A program made the translations under genes and the position numbers. A stretch of 64,000 nucleotides of DNA from Terriglobia bacterium (GTDB lineage: Bacteria; Acidobacteriota; Terriglobia; 20CM-2-55-15): NCBI GenBank assembly GCA_965198225.1, contig CBDAOY010000006.1, forward strand, positions 832,001 through 896,000, read 5' to 3'. This document shows positions 39,055 to 47,732 of the stretch, in pieces. Each line of letters starts with the position of its first letter. Within the stretch, counting starts at the first letter, position 1. The notes under the pieces are model-generated. The model saw only the letters and a program-made list of their open reading frames with translations, ran no database searches and was not told where the DNA came from.

Positions 39055-40678
39055 TCACGACGCAGGCTGCTGTATGAACGGCTCTCCCGGCTTGCCCCAC
39101 AGCCAACCCTGACCGAACTCGACACCGTAGTCTCGGAGCAGGGCCAGGTCGTCCCGGGATTCGATTCCTTCGGCGATGATCTCGGCGCCGAGCGTCCTGG
39201 AGACTTCCACGAGGCGGCTCAACAGGCGTCCCTTGTGGGGATCCCTTGAGGCGCCGTCGACGTAACTCCGGTCGATCTTCACAACATCGGGCTCCAGCAT
39301 GATCAAGGTTTCCAGGCAACTGCGTCCGAACCCGACGTCGTCGATCGAGACTTCGATACCGTTCTCCTTGAAGGCGGCCACGTGCTCACGCAGGCACGCC
39401 GGGTCTCCGATAAACTGCTGCTCGCTGATCTCGATACAGAAGGTGACGCCCTCTTCCGTCACGGCCAGCAGATCCATCAGGCGCTCGCTGGGAGTGCCCA
39501 GGATCGTCGAAGGGAAGAGGTTCAGGTGAAATTTGCCTCTCGGGCGGAGGCGCTTGCTGACATCCACGCAGGCCTTCAGGCAGGAAAGGTCGACCGTGGT
39601 CAGCATGTTCGCCTCCAGAGCGATGCGGAAGAAGTCCACCGGCATTTCCAGGGAGCAGCCTTCGGGACCCCGGCTGAGCAGTTCGTAGCCCACTACTTCT
39701 TCCTTCTGGAGTTCGAGAATCGGCTGGGGAACAGCTCGGAACCGACCGCCGTTGACGGCACTGGTCAGGTCCACGAGATGCGGAACTTTGATGTTGTTCG
39801 TGGCCGATTTCTTCGAGGTCACGGCCTCCGACTCGCAGCGAAGCGCGCTGTGGGCTCGTTCGAGGACTTCCCCAATCGAGCAGGTTTCCCGCTCCACCGG
39901 GACTACAGCCACGCCCATGTCGACGCTTAAGGGTTGTGGCGACAGCGCGAGCGGAGAGCTGCCGACCACGTACCGGAGTTTTTCGCCTACCTGCGTTCCC
40001 TCCGCCATGCGGGTGTCGGGCAGGAGGACGAGGAAGCGGTCCTGGTCGATCCGGGCGACATGGTCCGATGGTCGAAGCACCGAGCGAACACGCTCGGCGA
40101 TCGCTTTCAACAATACGTCGACCGTACCCTGTCCGAGGTTGTCGTTGATTTTACGCAGGTCGTCGCAGGTCAACAGAGTCGCGACGAGGTGCGAACCCGA
40201 ACGCTTCTCTCTCGACAGCTCGTTAAAGAGCGCTTTCTCGATTCCCCTGAGATTCAACGTTTCGGTCTGGGGATCGACCGTCGAGAGGCGCTGAAGTTCC
40301 TGGTTAGCCTCCTCGAGCGCCTTGCTCAGGCTCTTCCGCCTCCGCCTGCACTCTCTCGGTGACGTCTCGAAGCGAAGCGACAAAGGCCGGTTGGCCGTTC
40401 CAACCCGACCTGGCCACCCGGACGTCGACATGGTGCGGGCCGATATCCAACTCGGACCGATCGCGCTCCAGCACCGGGTAGCCGAAAATCGTCCCTTCGA
40501 GCTCTTCAACCGGTGTGTGGAATAGTGATGCAGCCGCCAGATTGGCGAACAGGATTCGGCCGGAGCCATCGACCACGACGACGCCGTCCGGAGTGGCTTC
40601 GATCAGTGCGCGAAACTGCGAGCCGTAGAACTCTTGCTGATCCATCCTTGGTTCTGGACTAAAGTTTTGATCCATCAT
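39055..40678 (-). pseudogene. PAS-GGDEF(degenerate)-EAL signalling protein with a frameshift near 40330
   Basis: The PAS domain (40304-40678 frame, ending RDVTER) continues in another frame with DPQTETLN, degenerate DQDRF, then ELL, DDVGFG, KIDRS, AEGIE and QG. Confidence 0.8.
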
Positions 40679-41012
40679 TGGTTTCCCGTCCTGAATGCAT
40701 CCTTCTCATCTGTTTTTATCGGCGAATTGGCCCGGAGTCTGTAGTGCGTGGGTGTGGAGGTCCACGAAACGCTTGTGATGCACTGTAGGCGATTTTTTTA
40801 CAGCGAGTTAGCAGTCCGGGGGCGTGGCGGGGCAGCTGGTGTGGATCACACCCTTGAGCCGCGGCAGTGGGGGTAGATGCTTGAGCGATCAACTGATTCT
40901 TCGTCGAGCAGATCTCAGAAGCGGCCGGACCCGACTTCGGCTATCAGAACGAACTCGGGGCGGAACAGAATCGTTCCGCGCTGGAGGCGATCGATGCTTG
41001 CGTAGGAGGGTC

Positions 41013-41289
41013 CTAGTGACCTGTAACGGAGAGATCGGCACCATCGCCGATGGGTCTTGCCAGTCGAGGTCGAGGAGAGAGGAGGAATTGATGCGGTTTC
41101 ATCATGACGACAAACGACAAAGAGATCGACCCCAACCCCCATCGGCCGGGAGGGTTGCGGCGGAACGGTCGGGTCTTCGTTGCCGCGACCATTTATTGTA
41201 AGACCCGCTTGTCACGGGTCGTCGGTTCCTAGAATCCGGTGCCGTTCCACCGCAACGCTGGTACCGATATCTCCGTTACAGGCCACTAG
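41013..41289 (+). mobile_element. CTAG-bounded structured MITE-like element, copy 1 (277 bp)
   Basis: About 31-bp imperfect TIR CTAGTGACCTGTAACGGAGAGATCGGCACCA / TGGTACCGATATCTCCGTTACAGGCCACTAG, with two internal hairpin arms. Homologous to 44611 and 44988. Confidence 0.78.
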
Positions 41290-41311
41290 TCCGGATTATT
41301 TCCCTGGCAGG

Positions 41312-42151
41312 TCAACGGACGACCAGAACCGGCCGATCCAGCTCCAACAGAACCTCTTTGAAACCTCTCTCGAAAACATCTACCGTCGGGAGGATGAGGA
41401 TACCGGCATCTTCGACGAGGACCAGGTGTTCGAGCAGGGCGGCATCTCTCCTTGGGATGATGTTGAACCGAATCGGGGGCAGCGCGCCCAGTTCGTCCAA
41501 GTCCCGCTCTGCCTCCTCGCGGATTCGGCCTGCGTCCTCAGCCGAAGCGGGCACGAGAACGACGAGAGGGGTTCTCTCATCCCCGGCCAGTTGCACGGCG
41601 ATCGCAATGCCGGTCCGAGCGCAGGAGCTTCCATCGTAGACGACGAGCACCGCCTGGCCGGCCCTCAGTCCCTGGCGGAGCAGGAGGACAGGAGCGGCTG
41701 TCTTCGACAGGATCATTTCCGTCGTCGTTCCAATCTTGCGGCCCACGACAGACGACCAGCCACAATGACCGAGGCTGATCAGGTCGGCTTCCGCCGCCGC
41801 CGCGAGCACTTCCCGGGCGACGCCCCCCCGCGCAACTTTGAAGCTCCAATGCAGATGAGCCATGCCCGCAATGTGTTCCATCGCCCGTCGCGCCCTGACG
41901 GCCTGAGCCTTCAACTGCTGCTCCATGTCCCCGCGTTCGACGGGCCGCACCTCGCCCGAAAACGATCCGACCATCCGAGTGATCGGCAGCTCGGCTCCAC
42001 GGAGCAGGTCCTCGTCCTCCACGTACAGGCCGAGCAGCTCCGCTTCCAGGTATGCCGCCAGCCGCGCTGCGGCCTCCAGTGCCGCAAAGCTGTTCGGAGA
42101 TGCGTCCAGCGCGACGAGGATCCGTCGGATTGGGGTCGGCTTCGTGGTCAT
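41312..42151 (-). CDS. Tandem universal stress protein
   Basis: RILVALDAS, VLVVYDGS and PVLVV motifs. ATGA overlap with the Lon-like gene. Confidence 0.85.
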   Translation of the reverse strand: MTTKPTPIRRILVALDASPNSFAALEAAARLAAYLEAELLGLYVEDEDLLRGAELPITRMVGSFSGEVRPVERGDMEQQLKAQAVRARRAMEHIAGMAHLHWSFKVARGGVAREVLAAAAEADLISLGHCGWSSVVGRKIGTTTEMILSKTAAPVLLLRQGLRAGQAVLVVYDGSSCARTGIAIAVQLAGDERTPLVVLVPASAEDAGRIREEAERDLDELGALPPIRFNIIPRRDAALLEHLVLVEDAGILILPTVDVFERGFKEVLLELDRPVLVVR

Positions 42152-44592
42152 TGGGGTTCTTCTGCCTCTCCGGCGTCTTGCCCTTTGTCCGCGGATTCGA
42201 CGGACCTGGCGAAGGCCGCCTGCTTGCGTGCCATCTCCGTCAGGCGTTGCTGGACCCGGCCGTTGATGCTCTCGCGAGGATAGTCTCCAGATGCATCGCG
42301 CTCCCCTGCATCGATCCCCGTCAAGAGTTCGATTCCCTGATCGATGGTCTCGACCGGGTAGATGTGGAACTGACCATTTCGGACCGCCTCGACGACGTCT
42401 TCCCTCAGCATCAGATGGCGGACGTTGGACGCCGGTATGAGGACGCCCTGCTCCCCGGTCAATCCGCGAGCGTTGCACAGGTCGAAGAAACCCTCGATCT
42501 TGTAGTTTGCTCCGCCGATTGCCTGGACCTCTCCATGCTGGTTGACCGAGCCGGTGACGGCCAGCGACTGCTTGAGCCCGGCGCCGGATATGGCCGACAG
42601 CAGGGCGTAGAGTTCCGTCGACGACGCGCTATCCCCGTCTACTCCGCTGTAGGACTGCTCGAAAACCAGACTGGCCGACAGCGAGAGCGGATGGTTCGCG
42701 GCATAGCGGGCGCCCAGGAAACTGGTCAAGATCAGCACGCCTTTCGAGTGAATGGGACCGCTCAGCTCCACCTCCCGTTCGACGTTGACGACCTCGCCTT
42801 TGCCGAGCCGTGTACGAGCGGTAATCCGGCTGGGACGCCCGAAGGTGAAGTTTCCGAGTTGCAATACAGCCAGCCCGTTCACGGTCCCGACTTTGGAACC
42901 TTCCGTATCGATATAGATGGTGTTTCGCAGCACCTCGTCCTGCATCTGCTCACGCACACGATCGACGCGGTGAGTCTGTGCGTCTATCGCCTTGCCGACA
43001 TCGACGGCGCTGACCGTGGTGTTTCCGGATACACCGGCCCAGTAATCGGCCTCGCGGAGAAGGTCGGCCAGTCCGGCGATTCGGCCGCTGAGTTTCTCCG
43101 AATCACCCACGATGCGGGCGCTTTGTTCGATGATGCGCGCGACCGCGCTACGGTCGAAGGCTTTGAGTTCTTCTTTACGGGCGAGCGCCCCGATCAGCCG
43201 GGCGTAAATCTGTTGCGTGTCGTCATTTCTTTCGAACCGGTCGTCGAAGTCGGCCGCGACTTTGAACAGTTGTCCGAAGTCGGGATCATGCTGGCACAGG
43301 AGGTAGTAGAGCATCCGATCACCAAGGAGGACGACCTTGACGTCGAGCGGTACCGGTTCGGGCTCGAGCGAAATCGTGCTGACCATGCTCAGCGCCTGGC
43401 CGAGAGACTCGATCTTGATCTGCCCCGCCTGCAGGACCCGCTTCAGGGCTTCCCATGCGTAGGGCTGCATCAGGACACGCCGGACGTCGAGTACGAGGTA
43501 TCCTCCGTTGGCGCGGTGGAGTGCGCCCGGTCTGATCAGGTTGAAATCGGTGACGAGCGTTCCCATCTGGGATATGTGTTCCATCCGGCCGATGAGGTTT
43601 TCGTACCCCGGATGATCTTCGTAGATTACCGGCGCGCCCTGCCCTCGGGTGTGGTCGACAAGGACGTTGACCCGGTACCGCCGCGCCAGTGGAGATGCCT
43701 CCTGCGGGCGCCCCCCCGGTGGTGGGGCCTGGGGTTCCTGGGCCTGTATGAACTCTTTTGCGTACTGGATGAGGTCCTTGTGAACGGCTTCGAGGTAGTG
43801 AACGAGGGCAGGGAACTCCGCGTACTTATCGCGTAGCTCGTCGAGCAGGTGGCCGAGAGCGAAATCCGTGATGTCACGGTTCAGTTCTCGAACCTTGCCC
43901 CGCACCTCCCGTTCCCACTTGGGAAGACGTCGCAATATCCGCTGGAGTTCCTGTTGCAGTTCCTCGATGTCCGCTTCCAGGCGTTTCTGTTCTTCTTCAG
44001 GGAGCTGCTCGAAGGATTCATGGGTGATGACTTCGCCGTCCTTGACGGGCGCGAACACCATGCCGACCGGCGTTTGCAGCATCGTGAACCCCTTTGCCTT
44101 TGCCTTGTCCTGAAGTTCTTCGAGACGCTTTTCGTGGCGCTCCTTGAAGTCCTGCTGCAGGGAGTGGAGGCGCGCCTGGTATTCCTCGCTTTCGAAAGCC
44201 GCCGGAAGTGCGGTGCCGATCTCCTCGACCAGGTCATCCATGTCCTGCTTCAGTTTCATGGCCGTGCCGGCCGGCAGTTGGAGGAGTGTCGGCCGGTTGG
44301 GCTCCTCGAAGTTGTTGACGTAGCAAATGTCGGGGGGTATGGGTTTCCTGGCGGCTTCCTGATTCAAGAAGTGCTCGACGATGAACTGTTTACCCGTGCC
44401 GGCCGGGCCCAGAGCGAAGAGGTTGTAGCCTTCGTGGGTCATACCGACGGCAAACTGGACCGACTCGACCGCACGCGACTGTCCTACGATATCAATGCCG
44501 TCGTCGAGGTCCGCCGTCGTTTCGAAGTCCAAGAGTGCCGGGTCACATCGCGTGTAAAGCGCGTCCAGGTCGAGTTCTTTGGGAACACCCAT
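42148..44592 (-). CDS. Lon-like ATP-dependent protease (LonC/LonB type, S16)
   Basis: GPAGTGK, coiled-coil insert, PGALHRANGGYL, and the VDGDSAS (Ser) plus GGANYKIEG (Lys) dyad. Confidence 0.92.
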   Translation of the reverse strand: MGVPKELDLDALYTRCDPALLDFETTADLDDGIDIVGQSRAVESVQFAVGMTHEGYNLFALGPAGTGKQFIVEHFLNQEAARKPIPPDICYVNNFEEPNRPTLLQLPAGTAMKLKQDMDDLVEEIGTALPAAFESEEYQARLHSLQQDFKERHEKRLEELQDKAKAKGFTMLQTPVGMVFAPVKDGEVITHESFEQLPEEEQKRLEADIEELQQELQRILRRLPKWEREVRGKVRELNRDITDFALGHLLDELRDKYAEFPALVHYLEAVHKDLIQYAKEFIQAQEPQAPPPGGRPQEASPLARRYRVNVLVDHTRGQGAPVIYEDHPGYENLIGRMEHISQMGTLVTDFNLIRPGALHRANGGYLVLDVRRVLMQPYAWEALKRVLQAGQIKIESLGQALSMVSTISLEPEPVPLDVKVVLLGDRMLYYLLCQHDPDFGQLFKVAADFDDRFERNDDTQQIYARLIGALARKEELKAFDRSAVARIIEQSARIVGDSEKLSGRIAGLADLLREADYWAGVSGNTTVSAVDVGKAIDAQTHRVDRVREQMQDEVLRNTIYIDTEGSKVGTVNGLAVLQLGNFTFGRPSRITARTRLGKGEVVNVEREVELSGPIHSKGVLILTSFLGARYAANHPLSLSASLVFEQSYSGVDGDSASSTELYALLSAISGAGLKQSLAVTGSVNQHGEVQAIGGANYKIEGFFDLCNARGLTGEQGVLIPASNVRHLMLREDVVEAVRNGQFHIYPVETIDQGIELLTGIDAGERDASGDYPRESINGRVQQRLTEMARKQAAFARSVESADKGQDAGEAEEPQ

Positions 44593-44610
44593 CAGTAGTC
44601 TCCTTTGACA

Positions 44611-44885
44611 CTAGTGGCCTGTAACAATGCTATCGGTACCATCGCCGATGGGTCTTGCGGGCGAGGTCGAGGAGGGAGACGGAAAGCGATGCTCATTCAT
44701 CGGTGACGGCTTCCGACAAAGAGATCGCCCGCAACCCCCATCGGCCCGAAGGGTTCGGCGGAACGGCGCCGTCTTCGGTGTCGTAACTCCCTCGCAATGA
44801 AACAGCATTGGCTCGGGCGTCACTCCTAGAATCCGACGCCGTTCCGCCGAACGCTGGTACCGATAGCATTGTTACAGGTCACTAG
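44611..44885 (+). mobile_element. CTAG-bounded structured MITE-like element, copy 2 (275 bp)
   Basis: TIR CTAGTGGCCTGTAACAATGCTATCGGTACCA / TGGTACCGATAGCATTGTTACAGGTCACTAG. Same orientation as copy 1. Confidence 0.8.
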
Positions 44886-44901
44886 TCTACAGCAGCCATA
44901 C

Positions 44902-44970
44902 CTATCAGCTATCAGCTGTCAGCCGATCCACGAAAACATTTGGACGCGCGTAGATTGAGCTGATAGCTGG
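44902..44970. repeat. Heptamer (CTATCAG-type) inverted repeat
   Basis: CTATCAGCTATCAGCTGTCAGC ... GAGCTGATAGCTGG. Confidence 0.55.
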
Positions 44971-44987
44971 TCGCCGAAAGCTTAAAG

Positions 44988-45264
44988 CTAGCAGCCCGTG
45001 GCAGAACTCTGCAGGGCCGCGTTACGGCCAAACGGGGCCGGATTCTAGGAGGCGAGGACGAAACAATGCTCTTTCATTGGGAGGAGTCGGCGACAAGGAA
45101 GGCGGCCCCGTTTCGCCGTAACCCGAAGGGCGCAGAGGGGTTCGGGCCGCAGGCTTTGTCGTTCGTCGGCCCCGATGAATGATCATCGCTCCGCTCCTCT
45201 CTTCGCGCCTGCAACCCGAAGACCCCTGCGCGCGACCCTGCAGAGTTCTGCCACGGGCTGCTAG
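44988..45264 (-). mobile_element. CTAG-bounded structured MITE-like element, copy 3 (277 bp, inverted, different TIR)
   Basis: Perfect TIR CTAGCAGCCCGTGGCAGAACTCTGCAGGG. The reverse complement shares GGGTCTT, CATTCATCG, CGACAAAG, AACCCC, CAATGAAA.AGCATTG and CTCCTAGAATCCG with copy 2. Confidence 0.78.
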
Positions 45265-47732
45265 GGTGTTCCGGCGGTGCGGGCGTTTTGTACGGATACC
45301 TGGGAGTCCAGAAAACTGCGGATTCTACTCAGCAGAGCCGCTTCAGTGAAAGGCTTCTGGATCAGGTGTACGTCGGCTGGGAGGATTCCGGCCTTTCCGA
45401 TTGCCGTGTCAGTGTAGCCGGACATGTAGACGACTCCGATTGGCCGGGTCTTTGCGATCTCTCCGGCGAGTTCCCTGCCGTTCATCTCAGGCATCACGAC
45501 ATCGCTCAAAACCATGTCGATCTGCCCTTCGTACCGTTCGACGATGTACAACGCCTCGGAGGGAAGGCCCGCTTCGAGAATCCGATAGCCGGATCTTCGG
45601 AGCATGTCGCACGTCAGCCTGCGGACCATCTCCTCGTCCTCGACAACCAGAATTGTCTCGCTTCCCCGTCGGGAGTCGGATGCCTCGGTCCTGGCCTTTC
45701 GTGCCACAGATTCGTCCAGCATCGGCAGGTAGATCCGGAACGTCGTTCCGGTACCCGGCTGGCTGTCGACCTGAACCGTTCCGCCATTCTGCTCGACCAT
45801 CGCATACACGGTGGCCAATCCGAGCCCGGTCCCTTTGCCGGGGTCCTTGGTGGTGAAGAACGGTTCAAAGATGCGTGGCTGAACCGCCTCGTCGATACCA
45901 CATCCCGTATCGCTGACCCTCAGCACGATGAACGGCCCGGGGCCCAGTCCGACGGGAAACGGAAGCGCCGGGTCGTCTTTCGTTGCGTTGGCCGTTTCGA
46001 TCAATAGCTTGCCGCCGCTCGGCATCGCATCTCGGGCGTTCACGATGAGGTTCATGATGCCCTGTTCGATCTGACCCGGATCGGCCTTGATCAGGCCCAG
46101 CTCGGGGTGGGTTCGTGTTGAAAGAACGACGTCGGAGCCGATCAACCGCCGGACCATTCCATCCATGTTCGAGATCACTTCATTCAGATTCAGCACTCTC
46201 GGTTGTCGGACCTGCTTCCGGCTGAACGCTAGCAGTTGTTGGGTCAGGGCTGCGGCCCTCTCGGTGGCTTTGCGCGTCTGCTCCAGGTTGTCACGAACGT
46301 CGCCCGGCGGTTCCAGATGATCGAGGGAGAGCTTGGTGTAGCCGAGGATAACCGTCAACAGATTGTTGAAGTCGTGAGCGATCCGGCCGGCGAGCCTCCC
46401 GACCGCCTCCATCTTCTGGGAGTGACGCAGCTGTTCTTCGAGTTCACGCTGCTGGGTGACATCCTGGCCGATGCCGATGGAGGTTCCGTCAGAAAGACGG
46501 ACGTTGGCCCAATTCGTTTCGAGCGTACGTCCATCCTTGACCCGGGTCTTGAAAGAACGCCATCCGGAATGTGACGAAGACATGTGGGAGATTGCCTCCT
46601 TGCGTTCTGTCGGATCCGGATAGCACTCGGCCATCAGGTCGATGCCGCTCAGTTCATCCCGTGACCAGCCCATGATCTGCTCGAATTCCTGGTTGACGAC
46701 ATCGATCGCCCCTTTGCCGTCATGCAGCGCGACCATGACCGGGATGTGGTCGAAGATCTTCTGGAACCGTTCGGTCTGGCCGCGCAGGGCAGACTCGGTA
46801 CGCCTCCGCTGTTCGGTAACGACTGCCAGGATCAGAGAAGAGAGAATCGCCACAGCGAGGTAGGTCTGGAGGAAAACGACCTGCTCGCCGACATCGCGAG
46901 CGATGAACGTCATCGGTCCGAGACCGTGTGCCGTGTTCCAGACTGCGACGACCGAAAACAGGAACAAGGCCGTGGAAACGCCGACTGGGCCGAGGCGCAG
47001 CGCCGCCCAGATCAGAAAAGGGAACGTGACGTAGAGCAGCGACAACAGCAGCCCGGAACCGGCGTTGTCCGAACCGAATATGATCGCGGTGCTGACGCCA
47101 AGGCCGAGAAAGAGGGCGCAGGCTTCCGCGACCCGTTGCCACCGAAGATCGGGGGAACTCATGGTCGCTAGCGACAGGACGAGCGGAGTGCCGAGCAGGA
47201 CGCCCAGGGTATCGGAAACCCACCAGAGACGCACTTCCCGCCACAAATTGGCGTCGAAACTGACACTGATGATGGCCGCAGCCGGAATCGCCATGACCGC
47301 AATGGTTGCTGCCGCGAGCAGGACAGCCGACGCAAGCCGATGTACGCTGTCCAACCGAATTTGCGACCCGCACACCCGAGTGATGAGCAACGCCGCGAGT
47401 CCGACTTGGACACAGTTCAACAGGGCCAGCACAGTGGCAGGCAGCATCGGGTATCCCGCAGTCAGGCTTGCGGCGACTTCTCCGACGAGTACGGCCGCCA
47501 GAATCGGGAACCATAACTGTCGTTCGCTGACGAGTAGGATCGCAAGTACTATGCCGGCGGCCGGCCAGATCGTGCCGTTGCCCTCAGGTGGGATGATCAG
47601 GGCTAACCCGAGTTGGACGCTTATGAACTGAATCAGCGCGACCATTCCGAGCGTCGATGCAAATCGGGTGCCTGGACTCAGGCCGTCGAGGAACCCGAAT
47701 CGCCCCTGAACCCCGTCCGACGAGGGAAACAT
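45261..47732 (-). CDS. Hybrid sensor histidine kinase (MASE1-PAS-HisKA-HATPase-REC)
   Basis: IWPAAG and PFLIWAALR (MASE1), [25 protein letters not shown] and VEDE...SDVVMP motifs. The start is uncertain. Confidence 0.92.

Follow-up and report, generated by a model that had tools for sequence, protein, structure and literature searches.

We asked what kind of element the three CTAG-bounded repeats are that lie between called open reading frames (ORFs) in a 64,000-nucleotide stretch of a Terriglobia bacterium genome (contig CBDAOY010000006.1, positions 832,001 to 896,000; hereafter the window). The window corresponds to G000:C6:832001-896000 in the source genome, G000, which measures 6.4 Mb in 9 contigs at ~60% G+C. 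Copy 1 lies at 41013..41289 on the plus strand (277 bp, with a self match of 100% at G000:C6:873013-873289), copy 2 at 44611..44885 on the plus strand (275 bp) and copy 3 at 44988..45264 on the minus strand (277 bp). Each has CTAG at both ends, a terminal inverted repeat of 34-35 nt that is 88-97% complementary, and a terminal stem with two arms, just as a preliminary description had placed and drawn them. That description proposed that fold and loops are conserved while terminal sequence drifts, and that the repeats may be an uncharacterised structured mobile element or a noncoding RNA (ncRNA). Our analysis indicates that they are very probably copies of an Acidobacteriota family of non-autonomous DNA transposons (MITEs, short for miniature inverted-repeat transposable elements), in which ends matched to insertion sequences (ISs) surround a folding two-arm core and the whole is moved in trans. 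The evidence consists of copy number, IS-end matches, CTAG-bounded ends, presence and absence at orthologous sites, covariation and re-assortment of modules; mobilisation by the cognate transposases is what we infer from these. The mobile, structured element of the preliminary description is thus borne out by the ends, the orthologous sites and the covariation of the Y-shaped fold.

The family is abundant in the source genome. Two rounds of nhmmer on the whole genome gave 317 hits, many loci matching on both strands because the element is nearly palindromic, and after removal of overlaps 167 non-overlapping loci were left (112 full-length, 55 partial). The full-length copies alone amount to ~0.5% of the genome (112 x about 276 bp in 6.4 Mb). 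They form six multi-copy subfamilies of 37, 18, 16, 15, 11 and 6 copies, plus 9 singletons, with mean distances of 0.028-0.093 within subfamilies. Copy 2 belongs to subfamily A, the largest of them (37/112), copy 1 to subfamily B and copy 3 to subfamily C. Coding capacity is negligible, as just one of the 112 is spanned by a long ORF with high G+C at third codon positions.

Beyond the source genome, a BLAST search with copy 2 detected members in 17 of the 39 other genomes covered. By taxon, these were 16 of the 23 genomes of the same taxonomic family and one of the two genomes of one other family, while none of the 14 genomes from nine further families of the class had a match. An exact pattern of the core, searched in one genome per prokaryote species, returned at least 41 loci; among the matches listed, all were Acidobacteriota metagenome-assembled genomes, with the record titles Terriglobia bacterium, Candidatus Versatilivorator, Acidobacteria bacterium and Acidobacteriota bacterium. 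The same pattern had 0 matches in viral contigs, and a distant BLAST with copy 2 had none in a plasmid collection. Two genomes of two other genera, G020 and G015 (L122, L123, L125 and L128; L006 and L007), carry the IS5/IS1182-like transposase described below at 98-99% protein identity. G020 also has subfamily A copies at 97-98% DNA identity and G015 A-like copies at 84-86%, on small contigs. Same-genus genomes gave 86% or nothing, as against these near-identical matches in other genera, which points to either recent horizontal spread or mis-binned contigs.

The ends of the family proved to be those of ISs. Through a search for terminal 15-mers outside the family we obtained complete ISs, so that transposases with matching ends were sought and found: IS630a for copies 1 and 2, and an IS5/IS1182-like element for copy 3. 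IS630a (L001 201-1330; 1130 bp), present as three identical copies, begins and ends with CTAG and encodes a 349-aa transposase (L001 218-1267, minus strand) that scores 257 bits against NF033545 (cut-off 100) and contains DDE_3 (1.6e-25) and helix-turn-helix domains. The ends of A, B and E equal its termini at 15-17 of 15-17 nt, and for subfamily A the identity reaches 22-23 of 26 nt; the ends of copy 1, CTAGTGRCCTGTAAC, and those of copy 2 are of this type. A second IS630 relative, IS630b (G000:C5:518263-519459), whose protein is 43.5% identical, has the end CTAGTCTCCTGTCCCA, which matches lineages 13 and 15 at 14/15 nt. A further IS630 relative, in G012, starts with GTAGTGGTCCCCGTC and resembles lineage 2 and L033. 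For eight IS630-relative loci, an exact-word search for inverted ends found none, and three were read by eye from the positions of CTAG.

Copy 3, by comparison, has ends (CTAGCAGCCCGTGGCAGAAC) that match not an IS630-family element but one whose transposase carries DUF772 and DDE_Tnp_1 domains. This IS5/IS1182-like element (L004 201-1692; 1492 bp; end CTAGCAGTCCGTGGCAGAAGT) encodes a 493-aa protein (L004 211-1692) whose best NCBIfam hits stay below cut-off (IS1182 at 147 bits against 270, IS5 at 88 bits against 140). Its terminus matches subfamily C at 18/19 nt and subfamily D at 20/21 nt. The transposase query also matched in G020, G015 and G003, and all eight further copies examined, from three other genomes, had the same ends, CTAGCAG(T/C)CCGTGG; in the variant of G003 and G015, 21 nt are identical to the end of subfamily D. 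The terminal repeat of copy 3, described before as largely different, therefore differs because it is the terminus of another transposon, not through drift. The proposal that terminal sequence drifts under a kept fold has to be given up: the ends differ as the ends of different ISs, and a match to IS ends is the very finding that the preliminary description had set against itself.

Likeness to the ISs stops at the ends. In BLAST of the consensus sequences of A-F, 13 and 15 against the three ISs there were terminal matches only and no interior similarity. We therefore rejected the core as a remnant of an IS interior, since beyond the termini it is without similarity to the interior of any IS.

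Several observations concern the ISs themselves. G003 (6.2 Mb) has 115 matches to IS630-family and 24 to IS5/IS1182-like transposases; in its sister genome G002 the numbers are 3 and 0, although C-type MITE copies there number at least 40. In G000, IS630b shares one CTAG with an abutting fragment of a second IS5/IS1182-like element (G000:C5:519456-519790), whose protein identity is 57.5% over 73 aa. The source genome also holds seven perfect 25-bp palindromes, CTAGTGRCCTGTWACAGGYCACTAG, which equal two outermost IS630a-type ends head to head (L001:1327-1351, that is G000:C9:948649; C4:330357, C5:367654, C6:1044469, C7:501890, C8:771745 and C9:1014131), with about as many degenerate ones. They may have been left by hairpin deletion in full copies, with the join at a 2-nt microhomology, or they may be minimal mobile units.

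CTAG marks the target as well as the ends. Among the 112 full-length copies, 84 have it intact on the left and 77 on the right, and 58 at both ends (49/82 with IS630-type and 9/30 with IS5-like-type ends). Adjacent elements often abut on one common CTAG, and in 44/112 copies the TAG stop of a long ORF lies at one element end at least. In copy 3, the right CTAG (45261-45264) includes, as had been noted, the TAG stop of the ORF at 45261..47732 on the minus strand, which encodes an 823-aa MASE1-PAS-histidine kinase-receiver protein. IS630 elements duplicate the TA inside CTAG. The tetranucleotide is strongly depleted in G000, with 3394 sites against 22925 expected from base composition, and single transitions have turned the CTAG of many element ends into CCAG, CTGG or CAAG.

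Mobility was apparent when nine orthologous loci of the sister genomes G002 and G003 were compared. Both genomes had a copy at four of the loci and one locus lacked a flank match, while three loci (L037/G002, L038/G003 and L148/L155) accounted for four presence/absence events. At L148/L155, an IS630-type copy is present in G003 only and an IS5-like-type copy in G002 only. L148:870-1275 (G003) and L155 (G002:C1:2022990-2023420) represent two independent events 50 bp apart. The empty single-CTAG sites that the preliminary description had proposed to look for were found in part: orthologous empty sites do exist in this pair, but just one of four is clean, and it reads CTAT once, against CTAG...CTCG when filled. 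For copy 1, runs X3 and X5 showed a weak contig joint (40994>41303), contributed by a strain of roughly 90% similarity, that may represent an empty site; another joint (41291>44987) was disregarded, as it has just 24 letters on one side. In three same-genus genomes no empty sites for the window copies were found, the flanks being too diverged; only G001 matched (73%), and its match stopped 96 nt short of the end of the fetched locus.

We turn to the fold, which each copy can adopt as a Y or four-way shape on either strand. In copy 1, on the plus strand, the left half of the terminal stem (41013..41042) pairs with the right half (41260..41289), which closes with the CTAG at 41286-41289; fold, inverted repeat and comparison with the IS agree here, the outermost ~15 nt matching the IS630a terminus. 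Arm 1 is a hairpin (41046..41146) with the basal stem CCGATGGG / CCCATCGG, assigned from the fold and the pair counts of helix 2. Arm 2, also a hairpin (41151..41258; helix 7), contains the conserved motifs GTCTTCG..TGTCG and TCCTAGAATCCG and has an apex that has diverged in copy 1. The corresponding parts of copy 2, on the same strand, are the terminal stem (44611-44640 with 44856-44885), arm 1 (44644-44745) and arm 2 (44750-44855). In the alignment of the three copies we recovered the common motifs listed earlier (GGGTCTT, CGACAAAG, AACCCC, TTCATC and TCCTAGAATCCG), and the co-varying stem words that had been quoted are present, except that one pair of copy 3 has a G.T wobble rather than a perfect match.

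Folding energies were far below those of shuffled sequences. As RNA, copy 1 reached -128.6 kcal/mol on the plus strand (z -5.9) and -144.3 kcal/mol on the minus strand (z -9.6); with DNA parameters, copy 2 reached -94.8 kcal/mol (z -12.7). None of 200 shuffles folded as well as the real copies. Subfamily consensus sequences gave -128.6 to -187.4 kcal/mol on the plus strand.

To count covariation, the minimum-energy structure of the subfamily A consensus was mapped on all copies, and the 3' partner was slid by 1-3 columns as a control. Among the 112 copies, 87.6% of cells held canonical pairs, against 32-41% when slid. With 15 lineage consensus sequences, which carry less pseudo-replication, 82.5% were paired against 34-41%, and two-sided change affected 65 of 100 pairs, compared with 23-29 after sliding. 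A further alignment, A2, combined up to three copies per lineage of the 112 with hits from relatives (57 copies, 12 genomes). Here 84.5% of cells were paired (33-40% slid) and 76 of 101 pairs showed two-sided change. The covariation score was 0.383, against 0.060-0.087 when slid and 0.144 when shuffled (0/500 shuffles reached the observed value), although the close kinship of copies within a subfamily inflates significance in the shuffle control, so that the slid and lineage-level controls are fairer. Among the 57 copies, two-sided changes were found in 26/30 pairs of the terminal stem (helix 1; 91.7% of cells paired), in 15/21 pairs at the base of arm 1 (89.7%) and in 15/23 at the base of arm 2 (85.9%); apical helices were weaker, with 55-88% paired. 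Compensatory covariation for the Y-fold is strong, and the stem covariation first seen in three copies holds in the larger alignments. A single long hairpin that pairs arm 1 with arm 2 was rejected, since its interior helices were 61-64% paired and its changes mostly one-sided.

Between the ends, each of ~15-26 nt, lies a core of ~210 nt, made of two related hairpin arms in inverted orientation that meet at a small conserved junction, CCC-nnn-GGGTT. Arm 1 is similar to arm 2 in reverse complement, which makes the core an old inverted duplication. The type of end does not predict the core. Arm 1 of subfamily D, which has IS5-like ends, is 78% identical to that of subfamily B, which has IS630a ends; arm 1 of E, with IS630a ends like A and B, is just 41-45% identical to theirs, while that of lineage 13, with IS630b ends, is 83-84% identical to both. 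Lineage 5 and subfamily C agree in the ends (87%), the inner stem (94%) and arm 1 (91%) and only to 52% in arm 2, where lineages 6 and 7, with IS630a-type ends, reach 80-82% identity to C. Lineage 6 (G000:C5:649880-650150) combines an F-like left end with an A-like right end. These segment-wise identities disagree with one another, and thus ends, arm 1 and arm 2 appear to have separate histories.

The core was never met without ends: none of the 55 partial hits was a core-only copy, and the apparent "arm-2-only" or "33-243" BLAST hits in relatives were complete elements whose ends were of another kind or whose arm 1 had diverged, bar those in G019 and G004. These two genomes hold one-arm relatives of ~175 bp (L023-L026), in which arm 2 alone stands between its own inverted ends. 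The ends are CTAGTGTAGTGTCCAGGAATTAGC in G019, where the three copies examined are identical, and different in G004.

From these observations we propose the following course of events. Copies of A, B and E, including copies 1 and 2, would be moved by cut-and-paste in trans by an IS630-family transposase, and copies of C and D, including copy 3, by an IS5/IS1182-like transposase. Insertion would take place into CTAG, with the site rebuilt on both sides, so that a TAG stop codon would survive it. New subfamilies would arise when a core gains the ends of another IS by recombination or by nested insertion at a common CTAG; the partner ISs use the same CTAG-type site and elements abut on it, which would offer an obvious route for exchange. 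The fold would be kept for its importance to propagating (master) copies, not to the host. We assign it to master copies because subfamily consensus folds are almost perfect, while inserted copies decay nearly alike in stems and loops. Within subfamilies, private substitutions were found at 617/20368 positions in paired columns (3.0%) and 290/7568 in unpaired columns (3.8%); inserted copies decay almost neutrally.

A bolder version, which we consider possible but doubtful, is that the two-arm core is a hitch-hiking module, a parasite of transposons that hops among the end-pairs of at least four ISs of two DDE superfamilies with a common CTAG target. Its fold would then be kept for an action in cis, for example as a four-way junction offered to a host architectural protein or to the transposase, which might raise mobilisation or retention.

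Some findings weigh against a trans-mobilised MITE family. At least one end is no longer CTAG in 54/112 copies. The three other empty-site joints carry extra or different letters, as at L148/L155, where one joint has an extra GGCTGT..AA and the other a TTATG filler, and duplication of TA and of CTAG give the same picture at a CTAG target. G002 and G012 have C-type copies without a match to the IS5-like transposase (with this query, at E<=1e-20), and in five relatives there was no close IS630a (>42% identity), so that some subfamilies may be orphaned or cross-mobilised. The slightly slower change of paired columns (3.0% against 3.8%) leaves room for weak constraint on inserted copies, and the close kinship of copies within subfamilies tempers the shuffle statistics given above. 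Finally, why an element moved as double-stranded DNA by cut-and-paste should need a Y-fold is explained by no test made here.

One alternative keeps the MITE and removes the function of its fold. Paired changes could be a by-product of the copying of palindromes, through intrastrand template switching or hairpin-templated repair, and both sides would receive a mirrored copy of one IS end through foldback formation. The ends fit this to some degree: MITE ends are complementary over ~33 nt, against the 15 nt over which the two IS630a ends agree, and both ends of C and D are nearer to the right end of the IS5-like element (18/19 and 20/21 nt) than to its left end (13/14 and 18/22 nt). The resemblance of arm 1 to the reverse complement of arm 2 would follow, and the seven perfect end-to-end mini-palindromes look like hairpin-deletion products at a 2-nt microhomology. 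One-sided (wobble) intermediates are also rare beside two-sided changes in helices 1 and 2. However, asymmetries fixed in the stems have been kept, such as a G.T at position 7 and two inner-stem mismatches in all 37 subfamily A copies; their presence in consensus sequences means that homogenisation is incomplete. Internal loops and bulges are likewise held in place across lineages, where blind copying would tend to erase them. We regard this explanation as unlikely.

A second alternative places the action of the fold in RNA and its benefit with the host: within 3' or 5' untranslated regions, the element would stabilise, terminate or process messages, or yield a small RNA. That many copies must be co-transcribed follows from the 44/112 that end on the TAG stop of a long ORF, and copies 2 and 3 fill the entire spacer from the kinase stop to the start of the LonC-like protease gene, whose transcription must run through the elements or start inside them. 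Both strands fold far better than shuffles. Sequence conservation in arm 2 covers paired columns (majority frequency 0.78) as well as unpaired ones (0.76), and paired columns change slightly less, as given above. On the other hand, stem-breaking changes accumulate almost as fast as loop changes in inserted copies, and apical insertions of 25-36 nt are tolerated (L032, L067 and L078). Wobble-type mismatches are alike on both strands, both for private changes (76 with G.T on the plus strand, 102 with G.T on the minus strand; p 0.06) and for lineage-fixed ones (73 versus 54), although selection could favour folding of both strands in an element that lands either way, and would so erase a G.U asymmetry. 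Copies show no preference in orientation relative to the gene on whose stop they sit (18 same, 29 opposite), and the ORFs that flank them are convergent in 32 cases, tandem in 58 and divergent in 22. Between 40900 and 45400 we found one promoter-like and three terminator-like sites, one of the latter inside a copy, which is no more than in shuffles, and no U-tract terminators or promoters above that expectation. Comparison with Rfam 15 covariance models over 40000-46500 on both strands gave 0 matches at E<=1, so that no described RNA family accounts for the repeats. The only RNA-labelled run, X16 (share 0.05), had few short family-like contigs, 89% of them running into unlike sequence, and is uninformative on transcription here.

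The ncRNA suggested by the preliminary description is therefore not supported, given the lack of G.U strand asymmetry and of gene or replication orientation bias and the near-equal substitution in paired and unpaired columns, and we hold a host RNA function to be quite improbable. The evidence argues against a strand-specific RNA gene and a lagging-strand transposon of single-stranded DNA (ssDNA), and less against an orientation-independent RNA effect.

Movement as ssDNA, whether by an HUH/Y1 enzyme (IS200/IS605-, REP/RAYT- or IS91-like) or by integron attC-like recombination, with the likeness to IS ends incidental, is scarcely credible despite a very stable, co-varying ssDNA fold, and was rejected for want of strand or GC-skew bias: the elements are symmetric, with the palindromic CTAG as their boundary; at least four independent pairings link 15-26 nt of their ends to DDE-type IS termini; the two orientations do not differ in frequency (60 plus, 52 minus); and orientation is unrelated to GC skew (36/24 against 29/23, Fisher p 0.70), a bias that lagging-strand-dependent ssDNA transposons do show.

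The family is thus, in kind, a MITE with IS-matched ends; what is unusual is its co-varying two-arm interior, its use of ends that come from four or more ISs of two DDE superfamilies, and its recombining modules. No description of it was found in the full-text literature searched or in passages of a MITE census (PMC11602168), whose supplementary sequence files lay outside the search and may list members; in this respect, the label uncharacterised stands. The same census names MITEEc1_IS630 as an IS630-family-derived bacterial MITE (PMC11602168). The present elements share with such MITEs a small, non-coding, multi-copy and mostly intergenic nature, inverted ends equal to those of resident IS630-family members, and insertion at TA-containing sites of the CTAG type. 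RUP of Streptococcus pneumoniae also belongs to this group. In contrast to the group, the family here is longer than most (~275 bp), its interior is not a deletion remnant of an IS and is also enclosed by ends of other IS630 relatives and by those of an IS5/IS1182-like element, and its stems co-vary across subfamilies and genera.

Other folded repeats offer partial parallels. Correia elements (CREE) of Neisseria are high-copy MITEs with a TA-type target and a strong fold, often co-transcribed and without a transposase of their own, and by description, no sequence having been compared, the family resembles them in all these features. Correia elements, however, are single foldbacks of about 100-160 bp with one end type, for which roles as promoters, terminators and RNase III targets are documented; the present family comes from another phylum, has another sequence, and is longer, two-armed and provided with several end types. 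BOX elements of pneumococci and BIMEs of enterobacteria are modular mosaic repeats, mobilised in the case of REP/BIME by RAYT. They too combine separable modules in different ways and fold stably, but their modules are without flanking IS-matched inverted ends and CTAG, and the mobilising enzymes differ. Eukaryotic Stowaway-type MITEs are mobilised by Tc1/mariner transposases (PMC4561436). The likeness extends to the IS630 transposase superfamily, the TA target, ends as the only part common with the autonomous element, and the cross-mobilisation of unrelated interiors; Stowaway elements are eukaryotic, though, and we found no report for them of a co-varying multi-arm core common to the end classes of two transposase superfamilies.

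What we describe is selfish DNA of a familiar kind that is unusually modular, and not a demonstrated RNA gene. If the modular reading is true, MITE interiors are not always inert leftovers of a parent IS: structured cargo can be kept across genera while its ends are exchanged between transposases. The family would then be a natural test of what, besides terminal repeats, makes a short element mobilisable. There is also a practical side. In the reads of three DNA runs, short-read assembly contigs stop at every copy; since the family breaks such assemblies and sits on many stop codons, its annotation would prevent repeated mis-calls of a "novel ncRNA" in Acidobacteriota.

Within the window, the genes neighbouring the three copies are all on the minus strand. 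In minus-strand order, these are the kinase, copy 3, a 101-nt unique spacer, copy 2, a LonC-like protease, a Usp-family protein, copy 1 and a PAS-GGDEF-EAL protein. Copy 1 is found downstream of the Usp-family ORF (41312..42151), 22 nt from its stop, and the LonC-like ORF (42148..44592) has its ATG at 44592, with the end of copy 2 18 nt upstream. The interval from the kinase stop to the LonC-like start (44593-45260) consists of copy 3, 101 nt of unique sequence with an inverted repeat of its own, and copy 2.

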